This document shows, piece by piece, positions 4,007 through 30,141 of a DNA stretch of 64,000 nt. This stretch comes from Candidatus Kapaibacterium sp. (GTDB lineage: Bacteria; Patescibacteriota; Patescibacteriia; UBA9934): positions 244,242 through 308,241 of the forward strand of contig JBILHA010000001.1 of NCBI GenBank assembly GCA_044350705.1, given 5' to 3'. A program made the position numbers and the translations under genes. The notes beneath the pieces are model-generated. The model was not told the origin of the DNA, did not search any database, and was given only the letters and a program-made list of their open reading frames with translations. Numbering within the stretch: position 1 is the stretch's first letter; every line of letters starts with the position of its first letter.

Positions 4007-4090
4007 GATCCGAAAAAGATATTTCATGTCATGATTGAGGAGTGGCGAGTTTGATTGCTTTTTTCTCCAATATTGGTTATCTTTTTGCGC

Positions 4091-5272
4091 ATGTCTGCAA
4101 AGAAAAAAGTACTCTTAGGTATGAGCGGGGGCGTTGACTCGAGTGTCAGCGCAGTTTTGCTTTTGGAGCAGGGGTACGAGGTTATTGGGGGGTTCATGAA
4201 GAATTGGAGTGGGGGGACGGATGGGATGGATGATGACGGATTAGACGGATCAAAAGACTGCGGATGGAAAAATGAGCGACGTGATGCAATGCGCGTTGCT
4301 GCGCAGTTAGGCATTCCGTTTCATACGTTTGATTTTGAAAAAGAGTATCGAGAGCGAGTGTACGAATACATGATCGCCGAGTATAAGGCGGGGCGAACGC
4401 CGAATCCTGATGTGCTTTGCAATAAGTACATGAAATTTGATTTGTTTTTGAAAGCCGCCGATGAACTTCAGTGTGATTTTGTAGCGACTGGTCATTACGC
4501 ACGAAAAACCGTAGATGAACGAGGGATTGCGCATTTACTCCCAGGGGTAGATACAAATAAAGATCAAAGTTATTTCTTGTGTCAGTTGACACAGTCACAG
4601 ATTGCTCGCGCATTGTTTCCGATTGGACACCTGCAGAAAAGCGAGGTGCGTGACATTGCCCGAAAGCATGATTTGTTTGTTGCAGAGAAGAAGGATAGCC
4701 AAGGTATTTGTTTTGTAGGCGCGGTTGCGATGAAAGATTTTCTTGGTGCGCGTATTGCGGAACATCCAGGAAATATTGTGACTACTGATGGAAAAGTGCT
4801 TGGGCAGCATTGCGGATTTGAGTTTTATACGATCGGGCAGCGAGAGGGGTTGGGTGTGGGAGGGAGAGGGAGTGATCCGGCGAGTAGCCGGACGGGAGGG
4901 AGTAAGGGGAGTAGAGGGAGTACGGAACCGCTTTATGTCGTAGAGCGTCGGCCTGAAACAAATGAAATTGTTGTTGCGGTGGGAGATGATGATCCGGCGC
5001 TGTATAAGTCGGTGCTGCGTGCCGGGAATATTACCGAGACGTACACGGGCGCACTTGCTACTTACGAAGGAAAGAACATTTCTGCGCGTATTCGCTATCG
5101 TCAGCCGCTCGCTGAATGCGGATTTGTGATACTTTCTTCGATGCAGGGAGGAGATGCAAAAGACGCGGTGGTTGAAGTGACCTTTTCCTCGCCTCAGCGA
5201 GCGATAGCGCCTGGACAATTTATTGCGTTTTATTACGGAGAAGAGTTGTTAGGCTCGGGGATTATTTCTTAA
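4091..5272 (+). CDS. mnmA: tRNA-specific 2-thiouridylase MnmA
   Basis: PP-loop SGGVDSS and conserved MnmA core (NPDVLCNKYMKFDLFL…ATGHYAR). Carries an in-frame G/S-rich insertion (…[18 protein letters not shown]…) in the linker before the C-terminal domain. Confidence 0.85.
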   Translation: MSAKKKVLLGMSGGVDSSVSAVLLLEQGYEVIGGFMKNWSGGTDGMDDDGLDGSKDCGWKNERRDAMRVAAQLGIPFHTFDFEKEYRERVYEYMIAEYKAGRTPNPDVLCNKYMKFDLFLKAADELQCDFVATGHYARKTVDERGIAHLLPGVDTNKDQSYFLCQLTQSQIARALFPIGHLQKSEVRDIARKHDLFVAEKKDSQGICFVGAVAMKDFLGARIAEHPGNIVTTDGKVLGQHCGFEFYTIGQREGLGVGGRGSDPASSRTGGSKGSRGSTEPLYVVERRPETNEIVVAVGDDDPALYKSVLRAGNITETYTGALATYEGKNISARIRYRQPLAECGFVILSSMQGGDAKDAVVEVTFSSPQRAIAPGQFIAFYYGEELLGSGIIS

Positions 5273-8622: not shown

Positions 8623-8697
8623 GCGCTGGTAGCTCAGTGGTAGAGCAAAGGCCTTTTAAGCCTGTGGTCGTGGGTTCGATCCCCACTCGGCGCACCA
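8623..8697 (+). tRNA. tRNA-Lys (anticodon TTT)
   Basis: Manual cloverleaf: acceptor GCGCTGG/TCGGCGC, D-arm GCTC-AGTGGTA-GAGC, anticodon loop cTTTTaa, T-arm GTGGG-TTCGATC-CCCAC, encoded CCA. Confidence 0.85.
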
Positions 8698-8935
8698 TAA
8701 AAATCTGACAGCATGTCTGTCGGGTTTTTATTTTATCTAAAATAATCGAACCCACGACGGTTCGATGGTCAAGCGAGTGAGTGGAGCTATAAAGCTGAAT
8801 CTATGCGCTTTATAGCTCCCGAACGAGCACCGACTCAATCCGGAGGCGTAGCCGAGATCCCCGCTCGGCGCACCACAAAATCCCGATCGCAGGTCTGTCG
8901 GGTTTTTGTTTTTGAAACAGGTATAATCTTGGTAT

Positions 8936-11413
8936 ATGGAGGAACGAGGGTGGCATGTCATGAGTGCAGAGGACGTTTTGCGGGTCGTACGAGGAACCCG
9001 AGAGGGACTGTCTCTTGCGCAAGTAGAAGAGCGACAGCGTACATATGGAAAAAACGTTTTGCCTGAGCGGGATCGCATTTCTCCCTTGCGTATTTTCTTT
9101 CGCCAATTTCTTTCTCCTTTAGTCGCTCTCTTGTTTATCGCGGGGGGAGTTTCTTTTTTTCTCGGAGACGTTGTTGATGTTATAAGCATTCTTCTCGTGC
9201 TCTTTTTTAATGCCCTTTTAGGATTCTTTCAGGAATATCGTGCTGATCAGCGCATGCGAGCGTTACGTGCAATGGTGGGGACTTTGGCAACGGTTGAACG
9301 TGCCGGACAGGTGCTGCAGATTCCTGCGGAAGAACTTGTGCCCGGAGATGTGCTTTTTTTACGTGCGGGCATGAAGGTAGGTGCTGATGCTCGTCTTTTT
9401 GCGGTGAATGACCTTGCGAGTCATGAAGCGGCGCTTACGGGAGAAAGTCGCGAAGTGGAAAAGCGTACTGAAGTTCTCCCTTCCCCCGTTCCTTTGTTTG
9501 AGCGATCGAATATGGTGTTTATGGGAACGGCGATCTCTCGGGGTACGGGAAAGGCTCTTGTAGTGGCTACTGCTGGACAAACCGTTTTTGCACGTATTGC
9601 GCATGAAACGCAGCAGACAACGGGGGGAGCGAGTGGTTTTGCGAAGGAATTGAAAAAGACGGGCTTTCTTCTCTCTGGCATCGTTCTTTTTCTTTCCGGA
9701 GGACTCTTTTTACTGGGGATACTTCGGGGTGAAGATGTTTTTTCCATGCTGCAAGTCAGTATTGCACTCGCTGTTGCGGCGATTCCTGAGGGTTTATTGA
9801 TCGCTACCACGGTTGCGCTTGCCGTCGCGCTTCAGCGTATGGCAAGGGAGAAGGTGCTTGTGCGTGAGTTGGGAGTCCCTGAACGTATGAGCGCCGTCAA
9901 TGTTCTTTGCGTTGATAAGACCGGTACTTTGACCGAAGGGAATATGAAGGTGGAGGTATGTGATACTTCTCGTCCTGAAACGGTTCGTTTAGCACTTTCT
10001 GCACTGACTGAGCAAAGTAGAAAGCATGCTTCTCTCGCGCTTTCACTTACCGAGCAGGCGTTGGCGCAGTATATTGTTCGTCAAGGTATCGAAGATGTTG
10101 CGGTTATTCAGAGCGTTCCTTTTTCTTCTGCGACAAAGTTCAGTGAAGCCACCATACAGCGCGAGCGTCATGTTCATACGTTTCGACTTGGTGCTCCTGA
10201 AATGCTCCTTGCTTTACTTTCTGAGGAGTCTTCCGTCGTCGTAGCTCTTCGAGAGCGAGCGAGCGCGCTCACACGAAAAGGGTATCGCGTGCTCACGCTT
10301 TTAGAACGTGAATCGGTTTCTGAGCACTTTGCTTTTCTTGCTTTTTTTGGAATCGCAGATCCTTTGCGTGACGATGCTCAAGAAATGGTCGCACGTATAC
10401 AAGAACAAGGAGTGCGTTTGCTTATGCTTACAGGGGATCATCGAGAAACTGCCCAAGCTGTCGCGCGCCGGTTAGGTATGGAAGGCGAGTGTGTTCATGG
10501 AGATGAGTTGCGGGGTTTATCTGACGCCGATCTTGCACGTCTGTTGCGGAAAGTGAGCGTTATTGCGCGTATGGTTCCTCAAGATAAACTTCGTATTGTG
10601 CGTGCTTTGCAGGCAGATGGTGCGGTGGTAGGTATGACCGGTGATGGGGTAAACGATGGCCCCGCGCTTGCGGCTGCGGATGTAGGCATCGCTCTTCACA
10701 GCGGTACCGATGTTGCGCGTGAAGTTGCCGATGTCGTACTTATGGACGATCGGCTTGCCACCATCTCCCATGCGCTGGAAGAGGGACGAGGAACTTTTTT
10801 GGCATTACAACGGATCTCCGCATATCTGCTCATGCTTTCTTTGGCAAAAATGGGCGTTTTTACGTTTGCGCTTTTATTTGGTGTTCCTGTGCCGCTTTCG
10901 CCAGTGCAATTGCTTTGGCTGAATGTCGTGACCGATGGGATTCTTGCGCTTGGGCTTGCCACGTTTGTTTCGTATGATGCGTTGGATGTCGCATTGCCTC
11001 GGAATAAGATGGAGGGTATTTTTTCTCTTCCTTTTCGACGATTCTTGGTTATTGCGGTGGGCATTCTTACGCTCCCCTTGTGTATGATGTTTCTTTTTAC
11101 CCTTTCACTTTCTGGGCCACAAGCTGCGGGAATATTTTTCGCAGCCTTTGTTTTAGATGCGCTTGTGATGCTGTGGTTTTTTGCACGAATCAAGTCGGTG
11201 CATTTGGGGGTTTTTTTGTTCGTTATCTCTTTTCTTTCTCTTGGAGCTTCATTTTTCCCCTACATTCTTTTTTCCCATGACCTGTCTTTTCCTTCGCCGG
11301 GGATATTTCTTCTTCTTTTCTTTATTTCGCTTCTGAAATGCGTTTTCCTCTGGGCTGTTTGGCGCGTTATCCTCGTACGTAAAGCGTCTCTTTCTCCCGC
11401 ACTGGTATCATAG
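8936..11413 (+). CDS. Cation-transporting P-type ATPase (P2-type, Ca2+/Mg2+-like)
   Basis: Motifs DKTGTLT (phosphorylation site), MLTGDH, GDGVNDGPAL, an N-terminal cation-ATPase-N domain and 10 TM helices. Confidence 0.85.
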   Translation: MEERGWHVMSAEDVLRVVRGTREGLSLAQVEERQRTYGKNVLPERDRISPLRIFFRQFLSPLVALLFIAGGVSFFLGDVVDVISILLVLFFNALLGFFQEYRADQRMRALRAMVGTLATVERAGQVLQIPAEELVPGDVLFLRAGMKVGADARLFAVNDLASHEAALTGESREVEKRTEVLPSPVPLFERSNMVFMGTAISRGTGKALVVATAGQTVFARIAHETQQTTGGASGFAKELKKTGFLLSGIVLFLSGGLFLLGILRGEDVFSMLQVSIALAVAAIPEGLLIATTVALAVALQRMAREKVLVRELGVPERMSAVNVLCVDKTGTLTEGNMKVEVCDTSRPETVRLALSALTEQSRKHASLALSLTEQALAQYIVRQGIEDVAVIQSVPFSSATKFSEATIQRERHVHTFRLGAPEMLLALLSEESSVVVALRERASALTRKGYRVLTLLERESVSEHFAFLAFFGIADPLRDDAQEMVARIQEQGVRLLMLTGDHRETAQAVARRLGMEGECVHGDELRGLSDADLARLLRKVSVIARMVPQDKLRIVRALQADGAVVGMTGDGVNDGPALAAADVGIALHSGTDVAREVADVVLMDDRLATISHALEEGRGTFLALQRISAYLLMLSLAKMGVFTFALLFGVPVPLSPVQLLWLNVVTDGILALGLATFVSYDALDVALPRNKMEGIFSLPFRRFLVIAVGILTLPLCMMFLFTLSLSGPQAAGIFFAAFVLDALVMLWFFARIKSVHLGVFLFVISFLSLGASFFPYILFSHDLSFPSPGIFLLLFFISLLKCVFLWAVWRVILVRKASLSPALVS

Positions 11414-12890: not shown

Positions 12891-14264
12891 GTGAAGACGG
12901 ATGTGGCGGATAATGGCCTCATTTGTTACTCTGAAAGAAAATGCTTATCTATGCTCCATGCTTTGAAAAAGGCTGTTCCACAGCCTTTGCTCCAGATTTA
13001 TCATGCTAGCCTTGGGTATTTGGCTGGTATGGTGTACCGGCATCCTTCTGATGAAATGGTGGTTATTGGGGTGACGGGGACAAATGGAAAATCCACGACT
13101 GTTCAGTTTATTGCTCAGCTTCTTTGTGAACTAGGTGAAAAAGTGGGATATACCTCTACCGCAGGTTTTTCTATTGCGGGAAGGTCGGTTGAGAATCGTA
13201 TGAAAATGACCATGCCGGGTCGTTTTGTGTTGCAAAAAATGTTGCGGGATATGCGCGATGCGGGCTGCACCTATGCCATTGTTGAAACTTCCTCGCAGGG
13301 ACTCGCGCAGTTTCGTCATGTAAGTATCAACTATGATGTTGCGGTATTTACGAACTTAACCCCTGAGCACATTGAGGCTCACGGAAGTTTTGATGCGTAT
13401 AAGCGCGCAAAGGGTCTTTTATTTTCTCATCTTACCGCTCGTGCGCACAAGGTTCTTGCGGGAAAGCGCATTGCGAAGCAAATCGTGGTGAATCGTGATG
13501 ATGAGCATTCTGCTTTTTATGCGCAGTTTCCCGCGGATCGTCATTGGTCTTTTGGATGGAATGTGCATCCGGAAGAAGGGGTGTATGCAGAAGATATTTC
13601 TGGAGATGGGGAAGGTGCGCGAGTGCGTGTAGCCGGGAAGGAGGTTTCTTGGCAACTTCCCGCGCATTTTTCTCGTCTTAATGCGCTTGCGGCGATTACC
13701 GCGGTGCATGCGTGTGGTTTTCCCCTCGCAGACGTTCTTCAAGCTTCAGAGAAACTCCATGATGTCGCAGGACGATTTGAGCGCATTGCGCTCGGGCAAC
13801 CTTTTACGGTGATTGTGGATTACGCCTATGAGCCGTATGCCTTGCGTGCGCTTCTTGATTCCTTGCCACCTTATACGGGAAAAGTTATTGGTGTTCATGG
13901 TTCAGCGGGGGGAGGGCGTGATAAGGCACGTCGTCCGCTTATTGGAAATTTGGCCGCAGAGCGTGAGGATGTAGTGATCGTAACGAATGAAGATCCGTAC
14001 GATGAAGATCCGCAGGTCATCATTGATGCGGTTGCTGCGGGCGCACGGGAGAAAGGGAAGCGTGAGGGAGAAGATTTGTTCCTTATTTCTGATCGAGGAG
14101 AAGCGATTCGCTTTGCGTTGCAACAGGCTGAGCCAGGGGATGTTGTTCTTATTACCGGAAAGGGGTCGGAGCCGGTTATGGCGGTTGCGGGCGGGAAAAC
14201 CATTCCTTGGGATGACCGACAGGTGGTTCGAAACGTGCTATCATCTTTAGGGTATGGCGCATAA
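12891..14264 (+). CDS. murE: Mur ligase, most like MurE (UDP-MurNAc-tripeptide synthetase)
   Basis: P-loop VTGTNGKSTT; C-terminal GDVVLITGKGSE…IPWDDRQVV resembles the MurE GKGHE…DDR ending. MurF cannot be excluded. Confidence 0.65.
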   Translation: MKTDVADNGLICYSERKCLSMLHALKKAVPQPLLQIYHASLGYLAGMVYRHPSDEMVVIGVTGTNGKSTTVQFIAQLLCELGEKVGYTSTAGFSIAGRSVENRMKMTMPGRFVLQKMLRDMRDAGCTYAIVETSSQGLAQFRHVSINYDVAVFTNLTPEHIEAHGSFDAYKRAKGLLFSHLTARAHKVLAGKRIAKQIVVNRDDEHSAFYAQFPADRHWSFGWNVHPEEGVYAEDISGDGEGARVRVAGKEVSWQLPAHFSRLNALAAITAVHACGFPLADVLQASEKLHDVAGRFERIALGQPFTVIVDYAYEPYALRALLDSLPPYTGKVIGVHGSAGGGRDKARRPLIGNLAAEREDVVIVTNEDPYDEDPQVIIDAVAAGAREKGKREGEDLFLISDRGEAIRFALQQAEPGDVVLITGKGSEPVMAVAGGKTIPWDDRQVVRNVLSSLGYGA

Positions 14265-14679
14265 TGCGCGAACACTTTCTCCTCGTACCTGGCTCACCGT
14301 TGCCGTTGTTGGCCTTCTTTTGTTTGTCGCGTTCGCATTTGTGCGTGAATACGTAAGAAATATCGACATTGCTACTGAGCTTGAGCGTATGGAAGCTGAG
14401 AATGCGGCACTCAATGCCCAGCATCTCGCTTCTCTTGAGCTCATCTCTCAGCTTTCTACTGAAACTGCCGTTGAAGGCGAGGCTCGTACGAAACTGAACC
14501 TCGCAAAGGAAGGAGAGACAATGTATGTCGTGCAAGATGGTGCACAAGAAATTGCCGGAGAAGGCGATGCTTCTGCGGAAGAAGCGCTTACCGTTGCTAC
14601 AGACCCTTCTCTGAGTAACCCTGCAAAGTGGTTTTATTATTTCTTCGCACCTCCTGAACATCGTGAAGGTGCGCTATGA
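14254..14679 (+). CDS. Septum-formation initiator family protein (FtsB/DivIC/FtsL-like)
   Basis: N-terminal TM helix followed by a coiled coil (ELERMEAENAALNAQ) and position after murE. Overlaps the murE stop. Confidence 0.5.
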   Translation: MAHNARTLSPRTWLTVAVVGLLLFVAFAFVREYVRNIDIATELERMEAENAALNAQHLASLELISQLSTETAVEGEARTKLNLAKEGETMYVVQDGAQEIAGEGDASAEEALTVATDPSLSNPAKWFYYFFAPPEHREGAL

Positions 14680-15479
14680 CCGATGCTCGAAAGGTTTGGT
14701 TGCGCCGTAGTGGCATAGGATTTCTTTTTTTGTGGTTTTCTCTCCAATTTGGAGCGATGTTTTTTCACGCAGGTGAAGGATTTTCTCGAAATTTTTCTCA
14801 TTTTGTTTTACCTCCTGCGTGGGTAGGTTTTTCACCGGTTTCCTATCGGCAAGTCGTTGAGACTGCGCATGCATTTGTTGCCCTTCAGATCGCTCCTTCT
14901 TATCAGGAAGCATTTCCCCTCGCTCTTGCTTTTGCGGTGCGTGACGAGCGGCTTCAGCGCCTTTTAGGAGATCGGGCGTTGGAATCTGAGGATGTTTTTA
15001 CAGAAGATGATCATGCGCTTTTGCGTGATGCGGGGCTTTCTCTTCATGAACAGGAGAAGTTTCTTATACTGCCTCTTCTTCGCTTTCGACAATCTTCGAC
15101 GTTACGTAATGAAATTCTCCCCTCCCAAGAAATGCGCATGCAGAGCGTGCTCGAGAAAATTCAACTTGATATGCCATTTGCGGATATCGCGCGCTATTAT
15201 TCGGAAGATAGTTCCGCGATGGATGGGGGGGATCTCGGTGTTTTTCTTCTTTCTGAGCTGCCTGATTGGGCGTGGCAGGTAGGTACCCTGGGGATTGGTG
15301 AGGTGCGATCAGATTTTGTAGGAGCGGATGCGCTTTGGGTGCTTAAGGTGGTGGATAAAGGGGGTATCGGGGATGAGGCTTGGGTGCATATCCGTGGAAT
15401 TGCTATTAATAAGCCGACTTTGGGCGCAATTTTGCGCGCCCATGCTGCGGAGTATCCCGCATGGGTTTTTGTGTGGTAA
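14676..15479 (+). CDS. Parvulin-type peptidyl-prolyl cis-trans isomerase (PpiC/SurA/PrsA-like)
   Basis: C-terminal rotamase motif ...FADIARYYSEDSSAMDGGDLGVF... Confidence 0.55.
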   Translation: MTDARKVWLRRSGIGFLFLWFSLQFGAMFFHAGEGFSRNFSHFVLPPAWVGFSPVSYRQVVETAHAFVALQIAPSYQEAFPLALAFAVRDERLQRLLGDRALESEDVFTEDDHALLRDAGLSLHEQEKFLILPLLRFRQSSTLRNEILPSQEMRMQSVLEKIQLDMPFADIARYYSEDSSAMDGGDLGVFLLSELPDWAWQVGTLGIGEVRSDFVGADALWVLKVVDKGGIGDEAWVHIRGIAINKPTLGAILRAHAAEYPAWVFVW

Positions 15480-24005: not shown

Positions 24006-24091
24006 GATAGTATTGTTGTATTCCCGTATAGAGCGGGTATATACCCCCTAAGAAGGCCATCCTTCTTGGGACGTTTTTGCTGATTAGCCTT

Positions 24092-26155
24092 ATGTCTTCA
24101 TTTGAACTGCAGTCATCATACAAGCCCGCAGGCGATCAGCCAAAAGCGATTCAGGGTTTGGTTGAGGGTCTTCAAAAGAAAGAGCGTTTTCAAACGCTGC
24201 TTGGTGTTACGGGATCTGGAAAGACCTTTACGATGGCAAATGTTATTCAAGAGGTGCAACGCCCAACGCTTGTTATTGCACATAATAAGACGCTTGCCGC
24301 GCAGCTCTGTAATGAGTTTCGTGAATTCTTTCCAAATAACACCGTAGAATATTTCGTTTCGTACTACGACTATTATCAGCCAGAGGCGTATATGCCTCGT
24401 ACCGATACGTACATTGAAAAAGAGGCAACGATTAATGACGAGATTGATCGTTTGCGCCATGCGGCTACACAGGCGCTTCTTTCGCGTCGAGATGTCATTA
24501 TTGTTGCGTCGGTTTCTTGTTTATATAGCTTAGGTTCCCCTGAAGCGTATCAGCGTGAAGTTATTTATCTTCGTGTCGGGGATGGGCAGTCTCGAGAAGA
24601 TATTCTTCGTCGTATGATTGATCTTCATTTTGAACGCACTTCTGCGGATGTTTTCCGAGGCCAACTTCGCGTGCGAGGAGATGTTTTAGAATTCATGCCT
24701 GCAAACGAAGAAATGCTGTATCGGGTAGTTTTTGGTCCTCTCGGAGCAGAAGAAATTTTTCAGCTTGATCCTATTACTCGGTCAATGAAGAAAACGATGA
24801 AAGACGTATGGGTATTTCCGGCCAAGCACTTCATGTCCTCAAGTGATGAACGTGAACGCGCGCTCAAGTCTATTGAATTTGAACTTGAAGAGCGATTAAA
24901 AGAACTTGATAAAGAAGGGAAGATTTTAGAATATGAGCGATTACAGCGTCGGACGAAATACGATCTTGAAATGATTCGCAATATTGGTTTTTGTTCTGGG
25001 ATTGAAAACTATTCTCGTCATTTTGACGGACGCTCGCCAGGTGAGCCTGCATACACACTCCTTTCCTATTTCCCTAAGGATTTCTTAACGATTATTGATG
25101 AAAGCCATGTGACCATTCCTCAAATTGGAGGGATGTATGCAGGAGATCAGGCACGTAAACAAACGTTGATTGATCATGGATTCCGTTTGCCTTCCGCGAA
25201 AGATAATCGTCCGCTCACGTTTGATGAATTTATGGGAACTGTCGGGCAAACCGTGTTTGTTTCTGCGACGCCTGGTCCTTTTGAGAAACAGCATTCTGAT
25301 CGAGTTGTAGAGCAGATTATTCGTCCTACGGGTCTTATTGATCCTGAAACGCTGGTGCTTCCGGTTACCGCTACTGATGAAGGTCCAGATGGAAAGCCTT
25401 TTGACGGCCAGGTTCCCGACATTATTCGTCGTGTCAGAGAACGTATTGCACAAGGTGAGCGCGCACTGATCACTACTCTTACGAAAAAGATGTCTGAAGA
25501 TCTGGCAGAATATCTTAAGCAAGAAGGGGTGAAGGTTGCGTATCTGCACTCAGATGTGGAAACACTCGATCGCATCGCCATTCTTACCGACCTTCGTAAG
25601 GGCGTCTACGACGTAGTAGTTGGTGTCAACTTGTTGCGTGAAGGTCTCGACCTTCCCGAAGTTTCTCTTATTGGTATTTTGGATGCAGATAAAGAGGGAT
25701 TCCTTCGTTCTGAAACGTCGCTTATCCAGACGATTGGTCGTGCAGCGCGCCATCTTCATGGACTTGTTGTGCTTTATGCAGACAATATGACGGGTTCACT
25801 TGAACGCGCCCTTCAGGAAACTGCGCGTCGTCGTGCGATTCAAATTGCGCATAACCAGGAGCACGGTATCACTCCGCAATCAGTGAAAAAGAATATTTCT
25901 GATATTCGTGTCATGCTCGGAGATGATGCGGATCGTACCGAGGAGATTAAGAAAGTGCTTGATATTGAGCTCACTGCTTCTCCCAAAGAACTTGCTGAAG
26001 TCATTAAGGAAAAGAAAGTGGAGATGGAAAAGGCAGCAGAGCTCCTCATGTTCGAGACTGCGGCGATTTTGCGCGATGAAATTAAAGTGCTTGAGGTTGA
26101 ATTGGCGGCAAAGAAATTAGTGAAGGCTGATAAAGTTAAAAAGCGTAAGAAATAA
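24092..26155 (+). CDS. uvrB: Excinuclease ABC subunit B (UvrB)
   Basis: N-terminus [13 protein letters not shown], Walker [11 protein letters not shown], helicase motifs, C-terminal UvrB/UvrC interaction coiled coil. Confidence 0.9.
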
Positions 26156-26156
26156 T

Positions 26157-28736
26157 ATGCGGGATGAAATTGTTATCAAAGGTGCTCGTGAGCACAATCT
26201 CAAAAATATTTCCCTTTCCATTCCTCGAAATAAGCTCGTATGTTTTACGGGACTTTCAGGAAGTGGAAAATCATCGCTTGCGTTCGATACGATTTTCGCG
26301 GAGGGGCAGCGACGTTACGTAGAATCTTTGTCGGCTTATGCGCGACAGTTTTTGGGGAACATGCAAAAGCCTGATGTCGATGAGATTGAAGGTCTTTCTC
26401 CTGCGATTTCTATTGATCAAAAGGCACATGGTCGTAACCCACGTTCCACCATTGCTACGATTACAGAAATTTACGACTACCTCCGTGTGCTTTATGCGCG
26501 TATTGGAAAGCCGCACTGTCCGATTTGTGGGAAGCCTATTGAACGTTTGTCAGTTGATGAGATGGTTGATGTCGTGATGCGGGGATTGAAAGAGGGGAGT
26601 AATCCGGCGAGTAGCCGGACGGGAGGGAGTGAAGGGAGTGGGGGGAGTGGAAGACTCCGACGAAAGGAGGAGTCTCAAGGGAGAGGTGAAGAGGTTTTGG
26701 TTCTTGCGCCGGTTGTTCGAGGAAGAAAGGGGGAGTATTACCAGTTGCTTTATGATTTGTATAATGCGGGGTATGCAAAGGTGCGGGTTGATGGAGAAAT
26801 GCATCGCTTGAGTGAGAAGATTGAGCTCTCTCGTTACAAGCAGCACACGATTGAAGTGGTGATTGATACCATTCCTGTGGTGTTGTTGTCTTCAAAAGAT
26901 GGTCGTCAGCGTTTGGCTGATGCGCTTGAGCAGGCAATTGCGAAAGGAGAGGGAGTTGCACAGGTGGTGACGCCGTACGAAGATCGGACGCTTTCTTCAA
27001 AATTTAGTTGTGCGGATGATGGATTCTCTTTCCCAGAAATTGAACCTCGTTTGTTCTCTTTTAATAGTCCGTATGGGGCATGCCCTGCGTGTTCTGGGTT
27101 GGGAACGGTAGATTTATTCTCCGACAAGCCGTGTGAGGTGTGCCATGGAGATCGCTTACGCAAAGAGGCGTTGCATGTTTTGATTGAAGGGAAGTCCATT
27201 GTTGATGTGGTGAGGTTTTCTGTTGATGAAGCGGTACATTTTTTCTTGTCGATTGAGCTTTCTGACCGCGATAAAGAGATTGCGGCAACGATTCTTAAAG
27301 AAGTAGAAAATCGTCTTGGCTTCATGCTTGATGTAGGTCTTCATTATCTAACGCTCAATCGAACTGCGGGAACCTTGTCTGGAGGTGAGGCGCAGCGTAT
27401 TCGTTTGGCATCTCAGATTGGCTCACATCTTGTAGGAGCGATGTATGTACTTGATGAACCAACGATTGGATTGCATCAGCGAGATAACGAAAAGCTTATT
27501 CGTACGCTTGAAGAGCTTCGTGATCTTGGCAATACGGTTCTTGTGGTTGAGCATGATGAGGATACGATTCGTCGTTCTGATTACATGGTAGAGATTGGTC
27601 CTGGCGCGGGTATTCATGGTGGACATGTTGTGGCGGCAGGAACAACGCCTGAAGTGTTTAAAGATAAAAATTCTCGGACGGGGGCATATCTTCGAGGAGA
27701 TGTAGAAATTGAGGTTCCCAAAGAACGTCGGAATCGCGATGCGGGAGCGATAAAAGTAAAAGGTGCTACGGGAAATAACCTCAAGAATGTTGATGTTGAT
27801 TTTCCGCTGAAGAAATTTGTGTGTGTTACCGGGGTTTCGGGAAGTGGAAAGTCGACGCTTGCGCATGACACGATGTATGTAGCGGTTGCGAAAAAGCTGT
27901 ATGGCAGTTCTGAACAACCTGCGCCGCATCAGGCTATTCTTGGTATTGAATATATTGATAAAGCGATTCTTATCGATCAGTCAGCTATTGGTCGAACGCC
28001 TCGTTCTAATCCTGCTACCTATACGGGTGCATGGGGTCCGATTCGCGAACTCTTTACGCAAACGGAAGAAGCGCGTGTACGCGGTTATAAACCAGGACGT
28101 TTTAGCTTTAACGTTGCGGGAGGTCGTTGTGAACACTGTGAGGGGCATGGCGTGATTGCGATCGAGATGCATTTTTTGCCGACCGTGTATGTAACGTGTG
28201 AGGTATGTAAAGGTAAGCGCTTTAATCGTGAAACCCTTGAGGTGACCTTCAAAGAGAAAAATATTTCTCAGGTGCTTGACATGACGATTGAAGAGGCTGC
28301 TGAATTTTTTGTAGACATTCCTGAAATTCATGTAAAGCTCAGGGCGCTGAATGAGGTAGGATTGGCGTATATTACGTTAGGACAAAGTGCGACAACTCTC
28401 TCGGGAGGTGAGGCGCAGCGTGTAAAACTTGCTTCCGAGCTTTCCAAGCGTCAGACGGGAAAGACGCTGTATCTCCTTGATGAACCTACTACCGGTTTGC
28501 ATTTTGATGATGTGAAGAAACTTTTGGAAGTGCTCCATCGTTTAGTTGATAAGGGAAATTCAATGGTGATCATTGAGCATAACTTAGACGTGATTAAAAC
28601 TGCTGACTGGATTATTGATATGGGTCCCGAAGGAGGAACAGAGGGCGGGACAGTAGTAGTTACCGGTACTCCTGAAGATGTTGCGCGTCATGCGAAGAGT
28701 CATACAGGTCAATATCTCAGAAAATATTTGAAATAG
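26157..28736 (+). CDS. uvrA: Excinuclease ABC subunit A (UvrA), short form with an in-frame G/S-rich insertion
   Basis: Two ABC modules ([14 protein letters not shown] / [14 protein letters not shown]), two LSGGE signatures and zinc-finger cysteines. About 35-aa insertion [31 protein letters not shown] where E. coli UvrA has about 8 aa. Confidence 0.9.
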
Positions 28737-28746
28737 GGATGGAGCT

Positions 28747-30141
28747 ATGATTCCCGAACATATCGTTATTAAAAATAATGAACTCCCTGAATCGCCTGGG
28801 ATTTATTTTTATTACGATCAAGAAGGGAAGTTGCTTTATATTGGAAAGGCGACGAGTTTAAAAAAACGCGTGAGTTCCTATTTTACGAAAGCGCATGATG
28901 CACGGATTGAAGATCTCGTACGGAATATTGCAAAGATTGAGTATATTGAAACGCCGACGGTTATTGAGGCGCTGGTTCTTGAAGCAAATCAAATTCGTGC
29001 GCATCAACCGCCATATAATATTTTGGAAAAGGATGATAAAAGCTTCTTGTATTTTTGTTTGACGAATGAGCAGTATCCGCGTCCACTGTTGCTTCGCGGG
29101 CGAGACTTGGAGCGTTTGGGTATTCAGCCATTTTCTCGGAAATTATCGGATAAAGCGAAGAGATATTTTTTGGCAGTGTATGGACCGTATACCAATGGTC
29201 GCGCGATTAAGCTTGCGCTTGATTTGTTGCGACCCGTGATGCCGTGGTCGGTGTGTACGCCACCGGGAGGATCGAATTTTCCGATTGAATTGTTTACTGG
29301 CCAACGATCATTTGGATTTAAAAAAGGAAATAAAGATGGGAAGCCGTGTTTTGATGCGCAGGTCAAAAAGTGTCCTGGAGTGTGTAGGGGTGAGATGACG
29401 GTTAGGGAATATCGTCGAGGGATTGCGCGACTCATGCGTTTCTTTGAGGGAGAGAAAACGAGTGTGCTTTCTGAGCTTGAGCGCAATATGAAGCGGGCCG
29501 CAAAGAACCATCAGTTTGAAGAGGCGGCTGCATATCGTAATAGAGTTCAAGCACTTGAACATATTAATGATGTTGCGCTTATTTTACGGGATGATGACGT
29601 GCCATCGCTTCCTTTTTCAAAGGTAGAAGGCGTTTCCGGAGCGGATCTCTTGGGCCGCATTGAAGCCTATGATATTGCGCACATCAGTGGCTCTGCCGCA
29701 GTCGCTTCGATGGTGGTTTTTGAAGGTGGACGCCCTGCGAAAGAAAACTATCGTCGATTCCGTATTAAAGTTGCTCAAGGAGGAGATGATGTCGCTTCCA
29801 TGGAAGAGGTGATGCGACGACGTTTGGCACGTGCGCAGCATCAGCCGATCGCGTGGCCTCTTCCTGATTTATTCGTCATTGATGGGGGAGAGGGGCAGGT
29901 GAATCGTGTACAAGATGTTATTGAATCACTTGGCGTGAAGGTGCCGGTTATCGGTATTGCAAAGGGGTTTGATCGAAAGCAGGATCGTTTAGTGAGCGTT
30001 GTTTCACAACCGGAAGTGTTGCGTGCAGCAAATGCGTATAAGGAGGTTTTGCAACGGGCGCGTGATGAAGCGCACCGTTTTGCAGGAGCATATCATCGAA
30101 ATTTGCGCGCGAGACTGAGCGGATTGAAGAAACAGAGGTAG
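28747..30141 (+). CDS. uvrC: Excinuclease ABC subunit C (UvrC), lacking the C-terminal (HhH)2 domain
   Basis: GIY-YIG N-terminus (GIYFYYDQEGKLLYIGKA), UvrC RNase H-like endonuclease domain (YDIAHISG…EAHRFA). Ends right after the endonuclease domain at 464 aa. Confidence 0.8.
   Translation: MIPEHIVIKNNELPESPGIYFYYDQEGKLLYIGKATSLKKRVSSYFTKAHDARIEDLVRNIAKIEYIETPTVIEALVLEANQIRAHQPPYNILEKDDKSFLYFCLTNEQYPRPLLLRGRDLERLGIQPFSRKLSDKAKRYFLAVYGPYTNGRAIKLALDLLRPVMPWSVCTPPGGSNFPIELFTGQRSFGFKKGNKDGKPCFDAQVKKCPGVCRGEMTVREYRRGIARLMRFFEGEKTSVLSELERNMKRAAKNHQFEEAAAYRNRVQALEHINDVALILRDDDVPSLPFSKVEGVSGADLLGRIEAYDIAHISGSAAVASMVVFEGGRPAKENYRRFRIKVAQGGDDVASMEEVMRRRLARAQHQPIAWPLPDLFVIDGGEGQVNRVQDVIESLGVKVPVIGIAKGFDRKQDRLVSVVSQPEVLRAANAYKEVLQRARDEAHRFAGAYHRNLRARLSGLKKQR

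Follow-up and report, generated by a model that had tools for sequence, protein, structure and literature searches.

Repetitive extragenic palindromes (REPs) are palindromes of 20–40 bp that carry an unpaired GTAG or CGTC tag (Di Nocera, De Gregorio & Rocco, 2013, BMC Genomics 14:522, PMC3733652). REP families are species-specific and several may coexist in one genome; some copies lie wholly inside open reading frames (ORFs), in frame, where they add short peptides, and intragenic REPs have been published in uvrA (Thioalkalivibrio and Opitutus terrae), uvrB, pseudouridine synthase and tRNA synthetase genes (PMC3733652). GTAG REPs are linked to REP-associated tyrosine transposases (RAYTs); no dedicated enzyme has been found for CGTC REPs, the described members of which have an unpaired tag, stems of 8–9 bp starting with A/T pairs, a loop of 4–5 nt and a CCA tail, and with which the Rickettsia palindromic elements (RPEs) RPE-4 and RPE-6 have been classed (PMC3733652). 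Inverted REP doublets (REPINs) have been argued to be the mobile unit (Bertels & Rainey, 2011, PMC3116915), and the mobilization of such hairpins is attributed to an IS200-like Y1 transposase that acts in trans and is encoded by a single-copy gene (PMC3116915; Nunvar et al., 2010, cited there). Here, a 21 nt hairpin module, termed W, is described that lies in identical form inside the DNA-repair gene uvrA and the tRNA-modification gene mnmA of Candidatus Uhrbacteria [Patescibacteria, candidate phyla radiation (CPR)]. The DNA analysed, referred to below as the window, is a stretch of 64,000 nt of contig JBILHA010000001.1 (assembly GCA_044350705.1), which belongs to a metagenome-assembled genome (MAG).

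A both-strand self-comparison of the window and a repeat finder paired nucleotides 26595–26648 of uvrA with 4868–4921 of mnmA at 49/54 identical positions (91%) with an exact core of 29 nt. Each copy lies on the coding strand and encodes 18 residues, and the reading frame is the same in both. When the 64 kb were searched with a 28 nt core and up to three mismatches, only these two sites matched (0.00 expected from 100 shuffles), and no other site in the window has three GGGAGT motifs at 9 nt spacing. The first-pass annotation, made from the letters of the DNA, had reported a second nucleotide-level copy of a G-rich element common to uvrA and mnmA; this was borne out, and the sequence that it quoted is present as written at 26594–26690 inside the plus-strand uvrA ORF. 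It had, however, treated the segment as one element extended by an additional hairpin, and the 54 nt stretch had to be rejected as a single unit, because W is identical between the two genes and the arrays around it have diverged. The shared unit is W (TCCGGCGAGTAGCCGGACGGG), which is identical at all 21 positions and is nested in arrays of a 9 nt repeat (GGGAGTNNN); these differ at five of their nine variable positions, each array matching its own orthologue in a relative. The arrays are thus older and specific to their loci, and the hairpin is recent and shared.

W is made up of a stem (26603–26608 paired with 26614–26619), a GAGTA loop and a CGGG tail, and its reverse complement starts CC-CGTC-CGGC. 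The stem-loop TCCGGC-GAGTA-GCCGGA (hairpin 1, 26603–26619) was present in every fold; W folded at −11.4 kcal/mol with a GC stem of 6–7 bp and a 5 nt loop. An assembly artefact was rejected, since the independent Logan assembly L009 agrees with the window throughout the mnmA copy (100% identity) and NCBI, JGI and Logan sources all have the same UvrA and MnmA proteins on record; the Logan loci L132 and L133 show 100% identity at the 3' end of the window. To judge from its coordinates, Logan contig SRR27421204_4473 (23,769 nt, starting at window position 2849) would end at ∼26617, inside the uvrA hairpin; strains may differ at this point, or the repeat may have broken the assembly.

The age of the parts was read from three relatives. 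L006, in which UvrA is 98% identical, was aligned with the window over 18.9 kb at 93.6% nucleotide identity. Its uvrA array (GGGAGTAAG GGGAGTGAA GGGAGTGGG GGGAGTGGA) is without exactly the 21 nt of W, so that GGGAGTAA is joined directly to GGGGAGT, and this gap is the only clean indel of at least 15 nt inside well aligned coding sequence in that alignment. The same 21 nt are missing, at the same position within the 9 nt unit, from mnmA of L008 (MnmA 88% identical), where the array runs from GGGAGTGA straight into AGGGAGTAAG and the empty site reads GGGAGTGA followed by AGGGAGT. Neither locus has a target duplication or a flanking direct repeat at the indel. Such a presence/absence polymorphism with precise boundaries between close relatives is a feature of mobile elements. 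Simple slippage between flanking GGGAGT repeats, which would remove 30 nt, and polymerase bypass of the stem-loop, which would remove ∼17 nt, were both rejected against the 21 nt observed.

The third relative, L007 (UvrA 92% identical), is without the GGGAGT array and keeps the downstream sequence GRIRRKEDSRERG with a second stem-loop, hairpin 2. Hairpin 2 is therefore older linker sequence outside the repeat. The AGACTCC/GGAGTCT pairing that the first-pass annotation had proposed for it was recovered in the centroid fold; its assignment to the repeat was not upheld, as the same sequence occurs in L006 and in L007, the latter without the whole G-rich part. The first array unit in uvrA, GGGAGTAA, looks like a native seed sequence, because GGAGATAA is its counterpart in L007. 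These alignments divide the segment into three layers of different age: an older linker with hairpin 2, a tandem array of the 9 nt repeat and the 21 nt module. The possibility, named in advance as one that would undo the first interpretation, of an ancestral lineage-specific linker with no nucleotide-level copies elsewhere was right as regards a linker that is lineage-specific and hypervariable, and wrong as regards the G-rich and hairpin layers, both of which are copied elsewhere.

The same alignments bear on a history in which a 54 nt composite of array and hairpin was ancestral in both genes and the hairpin was later lost independently from uvrA in L006 and from mnmA in L008. Palindromes are deletion-prone, and the polarity at uvrA is not set by the outgroup, L007 being without the whole array. 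Two independent deletions would nevertheless be needed, with identical repeat-free boundaries, each of 21 nt (the 17 nt stem-loop plus CGGG), at two loci; moreover, the two modules are identical amid diverged arrays, and at the divergence of the L008 MnmA an old hairpin should have diverged too. This history is regarded as improbable.

In the UvrA protein the insert replaces no residues of the solved structure 9gxk. In an AlphaFold model built on 47 orthologues it coincides exactly with the only long stretch with a predicted local distance difference test score (pLDDT) below 50, and it loops out between a helix (residues 133–148) and a strand (179–190). Comparison of 120 Uhrbacteria UvrAs showed that the linker that follows MVDVVMRGL is hypervariable in length, ranging from ∼2 to 40 residues, and the view that the segment is driven by a repeat and lengthens a short linker was confirmed. 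A site between the signature domain and the UvrB-binding region had been proposed; the model instead puts it in the loop just described, which we take, from the domain map of Bacillus UvrA, to lie inside the UvrB-binding domain and not at a domain junction. In MnmA the copy lengthens a Gly-rich loop by ∼14 residues; most Uhrbacteria have no insert there, and variable inserts are confined to the closer clade. The MnmA model falls below a pLDDT of 50 at residues 247–276, which hold the element, and at residues 43–56, a second variable loop. W thus stands in frame in two unrelated genes at positions that the fold tolerates, and the uvrA segment is DNA-level repeat material settled in a loop of the UvrB-binding domain that is disordered and tolerates mutation. 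Residues 43–56 of MnmA (window 4200–4262) form a second lineage-variable disordered insert, WSGGTDGMDDDGLDGSKDCGW, in the N-terminal loop. Elsewhere in UvrA, residues ∼318–320 align to 305–422 of 9gxk, so that ∼115 residues of solved UvrAs are missing in all of the ∼830–860-residue Uhrbacteria UvrAs; the gap presumably corresponds to the insertion domain, the UvrB-binding domain being kept.

The 9 nt array is itself dispersed. It was found at four intragenic sites across the window, L006 and L008, namely the uvrA linker, the middle and the N-terminal loops of mnmA and a pseudouridine synthase gene, and was absent from the more distant genomes examined. It is read as GSx at three of the sites and as GVx at one. 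The units follow one another head to tail with a constant period in runs of three to six, and their number varies between relatives (four in mnmA of the window and six in that of L008), as in an in-frame minisatellite. The arrays of L008 lie at 9543–9583 in the pseudouridine synthase gene (GSx) and at 10127–10158 in the N-terminal loop of mnmA (GVx). The occurrence of the array at four sites in two frames argues for an origin at the level of DNA and not by selection on the peptide; a convergent peptide was rejected on nucleotide identity and on the second reading frame. The array is probably also REP- or RPE-like repeat material. Three canonical G-quadruplex motifs occur in the 64 kb, all on the plus strand (4846–4864, 4894–4918 and 26621–26645) and all at the uvrA and mnmA element sites, with none on the minus strand; these are motif matches and not evidence of folding.

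It was also considered that the segments were selected as protein, as a flexible Gly/Ser-rich tether in UvrA and MnmA, or that the hairpins serve as regulatory mRNA structures. The peptides are Gly/Ser-rich and disordered. In addition, L007 keeps all seven pairs of hairpin 2 through a change from C-G to A-T on both sides, and a neutral simulation at 20.5% divergence gave P ∼0.015 for an intact stem with at least one both-sides change. The shuffle control with three sequences was not significant (169/500), and coding constraints act as a confounder. The compensatory change looked for between copies amounts to one both-sides change among three sequences and is no more than suggestive; structural selection could account for it, as could quasi-palindrome correction by template switching. 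The mRNA-strand folds are not unusual (z = −1.5 and −0.7), and no Rfam family was matched. Convergence is ruled out by the 49/54 identical nucleotides with identical codon choices, the same array is read in the GVx frame in L008, and the closest relatives are without the hairpin, slightly more distant ones being without the whole G-rich part. Selection on peptide or RNA is accordingly given the smallest chance of the explanations weighed here, a very slight one.

Hairpin repeats other than W occupy the same loops in other Uhrbacteria. The UvrA and MnmA protein sets have five distinct 9-mers in common, compared with none in 50 shuffles, and in at least three other lineages different hairpin repeats of 26–33 nt are common to the same uvrA and mnmA loops. 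Family J, from two contigs of JGI sample 3300014205, comprises 32 identical nucleotides, CGCGCCGTC-GGGTCGGC-TCCTAT-GCCGACCC, with a CGTC tag and an 8 bp stem; it lies in the uvrA linker (L010, 10433–10464) and in the N-terminal loop of mnmA, and a third copy is inverted, in frame, in the C-terminal loop of mnmA (L011, 10124–10155 and 10976–11005 for the copies on the mnmA contig). Family K (GTAG-GGGCGGGTTTAAAACCCGCCC-GTAC) is present in four copies in 37 kb of MAG GCA_964414795.1, in uvrA, mnmA, a DUF8128 gene and a Y1_Tnp-like gene. Family K2, a GTAG tag with an 8 bp hairpin, occurs both within a pseudouridine synthase gene and, close to a contig end, in unannotated DNA. Family S, the uvrA and mnmA copies of which come from different assemblies, is found in these two genes and directly downstream of uvrC, in no called gene. 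The N-terminal loop of MnmA that holds residues 43–56 in the window is occupied by J, K and S in other lineages.

Ten of the 12 copies in these sister genomes are in annotated genes, the remaining two being the S copy just 3' of uvrC and the K2 copy in unannotated DNA. Every intragenic copy keeps the reading frame and falls in a loop, the families fold at −10 to −25 kcal/mol, and GTAG or CGTC stands beside the stem in four of the five families (J, K, K2 and W, the tag of W overlapping the stem). Copies of J, K and S lie at non-homologous sites, whereas both copies of W lie in GGGAGT arrays. Since no flanking homology exists between the sites of J, K and S, these families were not spread by gene conversion. 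The Y1_Tnp-like gene of family K's genome (L012, 11093–11671) encodes a RAYT-like protein of 192 residues and lies between uvrA and uvrC; it scores 26.7 bits against Pfam Y1_Tnp (cutoff 23) and is interrupted in frame by a family K copy (11384–11412). The protein may be inactive, since its C-terminal motif is WHRSFHERIIRD, in which a tyrosine that would be expected from RAYT motifs was not seen. Further perfect palindromes of 24–36 nt occur at L011 9124–9149, inside a pseudouridine synthase gene, at L013 17683–17706, adjoining the K2 copy near the contig end, and at L010 6467–6502. A fifth shared peptide, APSDSSM, is found in the UvrA linker (P0078, residues ∼145–151) and the C-terminal MnmA loop (P0190, residues ∼335–341) of yet another lineage.

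W is read here as a small REP- or RPE-like palindromic repeat that has spread as DNA, by transposition-like copying of a hairpin, and has survived in frame in tolerant loops; the probability of this reading is put at about 0.5. Transposition-like copying is favoured by the clade-wide families without flanking homology, by the repeat-free empty sites, by the tags and by the presence of a RAYT-like gene in one sister genome. Precise, repeat-free empty sites are typical of IS200/IS605-type chemistry. W would be a non-autonomous element copied at the DNA level, the most likely route being the processing of a single-stranded hairpin by a Y1 (RAYT/IS200-like) transposase. Both insertions lie directly 3' of GGGAGTRA, and the putative target is the GTRA motif, 3' of which W would be inserted. 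Copies would be kept only if their length is divisible by three, if they bring no stop codon and if they fall in an exposed loop, and the translated product would be a flexible Gly/Ser-rich loop with no required function.

Several observations weigh against this reading. W is present in two copies in 73.6 kb (the window and a 9.6 kb extension beyond it), both within GGGAGT arrays and at the same position; no copy in another context or orientation was found in the 73.6 kb, and four other GGGAGTRA sites are empty of W. A tblastn search of the window and the extension gave no homologue of a Y1 transposase. The best NCBIfam match of the L012 protein, to the REP-associated tyrosine transposase family NF047646, scores 54.9 bits and so falls below the cutoff of 80, and a PDB sequence search with the same protein returned no match and no transposase. 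The CGTC of W, on the complementary strand, overlaps the stem, which has 6–7 bp and no A/T start, and there is no CCA tail, unlike in described CGTC REPs. Finally, the base after W in uvrA is A, as in mnmA, and G in the empty L006 allele, and the loop GCGAGTA, which differs from the array core by one mismatch, is the same as a variant unit in the L008 mnmA array. These last two features fit copying between arrays, or birth of the hairpin inside an array, better than transposition.

Without dedicated mobility, a snap-back or quasi-palindrome template switch would have created the hairpin once, in one GGGAGT array, for instance out of the variant unit GCGAGTACG. Short-patch gene conversion or template switching during replication would then have carried it to the other array, guided by what the two arrays have in common, namely 8 nt 5' of the module and ∼25 nt of identity, with interruptions, 3' of it. 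Stalling promoted by G-quadruplex-prone arrays on the G-rich strand would trigger such switching. The identical position of both copies in two similar arrays, and nowhere else in the 73.6 kb, speaks for this course of events, as does the location of the window's only three G-quadruplex motifs. However, the 5' homology is only 8 nt, a tract of ∼22–30 nt is very short for RecA-type conversion, and the A/G difference could be a single synonymous change in a Lys codon at 6.4% divergence. Copying between arrays also leaves unexplained the GGGAGT arrays at four unrelated sites in two frames and the J, K and S families in the same loops of sister genomes without flanking homology. It is entertained as a tentative alternative, possible though somewhat doubtful.

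Searches for further copies were extended beyond the window. No third copy of W was found in the 9.6 kb extension or in L006, L007 and L008. A scan of species-representative genomes with AGTAGCCGGACGGGAGGGAGT gave 0 matches in a collection that does not contain the source genome, and a scan of viral contigs also gave 0 matches. A codon-degenerate pattern gave five chance matches in unrelated metagenome DNA, four of them in DNA of ∼70% GC and none with flanking repeats. In a genome scan with an 18-mer of the hairpin only, the matches listed included no Patescibacteria; they were due to chance, fell in Streptomyces and other unrelated taxa and nearly always stood alone, so that the scan was uninformative. 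A protein search with the five open-frame peptides joined returned nothing at E values up to 10; it also missed the window's own proteins and was too insensitive for 18-residue matches. Rfam covariance searches of the whole window at gathering thresholds and of 26450–26850 at permissive ones returned only four tRNAs, none at the site. Within the literature library that was searched, no paper linked REPs, RAYTs or palindromic repeats with Patescibacteria or Uhrbacteria.

Coordinates of the features are collected in Table 1.

Table 1. Features of the uvrA and mnmA repeat loci in window coordinates.
Feature	Position	Strand	Basis
uvrA, 859 aa	26157–28736	+	ORF list; phmmer against PDB UvrA chains, E = 0; 120 Uhrbacteria orthologues
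29-aa insert, aa 148–176 of UvrA	26598–26684	+	Clean insertion relative to solved UvrA 9gxk; predicted disordered
First array unit GGGAGTAA, 5' flank of the hairpin module	26595–26602	+	Alignment with relatives
Hairpin module W, 21 nt, TCCGGCGAGTAGCCGGACGGG	26603–26623	+	Identical to 4876–4896
Remaining 9 nt array, A GGGAGTGAA GGGAGTGGG GGGAGTGGA, encodes GSEGSGGSG	26624–26651	+	Identical in L006
Canonical G-quadruplex motif GGGAGGGAGTGAAGGGAGTGGGGGG	26621–26645	+ (coding strand)	Motif match only
Hairpin 2, AGACTCC (26652–26658), GACGAAAGGA, GGAGTCT (26669–26675), 10 nt loop	26652–26675	+	Centroid fold
Spurious antisense ORF, 154 aa	26536–27000	−	Repeat without antisense stop codons
mnmA, host of second copy	4091–5272	+	393-aa form from 4091 matches database protein P0121
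mnmA copy, GGGAGTGA, W (4876–4896), A GGGAGTAAG GGGAGTAGA GGGAGT	4868–4921	+	Disordered loop, aa 247–276

The uvrA gene is flanked by uvrB (24077–26155) and uvrC (28747–30141), and the mnmA ORF possibly starts at 4055. The 54 nt repeat is open in five of six frames, with stops only in sense frame +3; because it brings no antisense stops, the antisense ORF listed in Table 1 and a second one at 26550–26846 stay open, in agreement with the earlier proposal that the open antisense strand produces the spurious minus-strand ORFs. The window has a GC skew of +0.16, and GGGAGT occurs 35 times on the plus strand and four times on the minus strand; this strong strand asymmetry suggests that the window lies in a single replichore and that its genes run in the direction of replication. 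A second copy of the 3' end of tRNA-Lys(ttt) (8623–8697), together with the hairpin and T-run that follow it, lies 178 nt further along (8678–8734 and 8856–8912, 57 nt, 84% identical); this duplication looks like an integration-site scar. In L006, the counterpart of the region of the window's 604-residue UvrD helicase (12986–14706) is broken into short ORFs, and uvrB of L014 (7661–9748) is split into two ORFs; these broken genes associated with nucleotide excision repair may be pseudogenes or assembly errors.

Mobility of these mini-hairpins would mean that REP-like selfish DNA is present even in very small and streamlined CPR genomes, and that repeat insertion, not adaptation, accounts for a large share of the loop-length variation in conserved CPR proteins. 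Such inserts create spurious antisense ORFs and inflate apparent protein divergence; they may break assemblies and could serve as fine-scale strain markers. A wider picture can be drawn, as a speculation that is unlikely to hold as a whole: Uhrbacteria, and perhaps CPR bacteria more widely, would harbour active lineage-specific hairpin families of 21–33 nt and G-quadruplex-prone 9 nt arrays, which would be moved by RAYT-like Y1 transposases, would colonize the same disordered loops in enzymes of DNA repair and tRNA modification time and again, and would be a major source of loop-length variation. In this picture W would rank with the smallest mobile DNA units known and would prefer targets 3' of GTRA within GGGAGT arrays. 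The recurrence of uvrA among the hosts echoes the published bias of intragenic REPs towards replication and repair genes, and this clade could help to test that bias.

Compared with the described systems, W resembles RPEs in that palindromic repeats lie in frame in unrelated housekeeping genes of a reduced genome and add surface segments without destroying function. RPEs were reportedly introduced by Ogata and co-workers in 2000, and the classic RPE-1 is said to measure ∼100–150 bp. W has only 21 nt (54 nt with the array) and the other Uhrbacteria families 26–33 nt. Small dispersed repeats (SDRs) of cyanobacteria, reportedly described by Elhai and co-workers in Genome Res. in 2008, are said to be 21–27 nt long with hundreds of copies per genome. 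Cyanobacterial SDR repeats are also named by Bertels & Rainey (PMC3116915). The SDRs and the heptamer short tandemly repeated repetitive sequences (STRRs) share with W a length of ∼21–27 nt, nesting in other repeats, a location within genes and the use of presence/absence as evidence of mobility, but they belong to another phylum, have other sequences and reach a far higher copy number. The array of the 9 nt repeat resembles an intragenic minisatellite in its period, its frame and its varying number of units; an ordinary minisatellite is confined to a single locus, whereas the GGGAGTNNN core occurs at four unrelated loci in two frames and hosts a shared hairpin.

With REPs, W has in common that it is a short palindrome forming a stable GC stem-loop; on the sense strand its 5' flank is GTAA or GTGA, and K and K2 (GTAG) and J (CGTC with an 8 bp stem) fit the tagged design better. 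Described REPs are high-copy, whereas two copies of W were found in 73.6 kb; they are mostly extragenic and usually 3' of genes, whereas 12 of the 14 copies here are in annotated genes and both W copies are intragenic; and they are often paired [head-to-head or tail-to-tail, as REPINs or bacterial interspersed mosaic elements (BIMEs)], whereas all copies here are singletons. W is furthermore nested in a 9 nt tandem array, and Patescibacteria/CPR were not among the eight phyla surveyed for REPs (PMC3733652). The REPIN–RAYT system has its parallel in the RAYT-like gene beside uvrA in L012, which occurs together with GTAG-tagged hairpins; it differs in that inverted doublets are absent here, the L012 gene does not reach the NCBIfam cutoff and no gene of this kind lies in the window. 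Because W, in 73.6 kb, is neither extragenic nor present in many copies nor dimeric, it is not filed as a member of a described REP family, and it behaves like an intragenic REP or RPE. Intragenic REP/RPE-like palindromic repeats have already been published in kind, including in uvrA; what is new is that the host belongs to this phylum, that the repeats are very small, that W is nested in an array of 9 nt units which is itself dispersed, and that different families in sister lineages have come to use the same loops of UvrA and MnmA.

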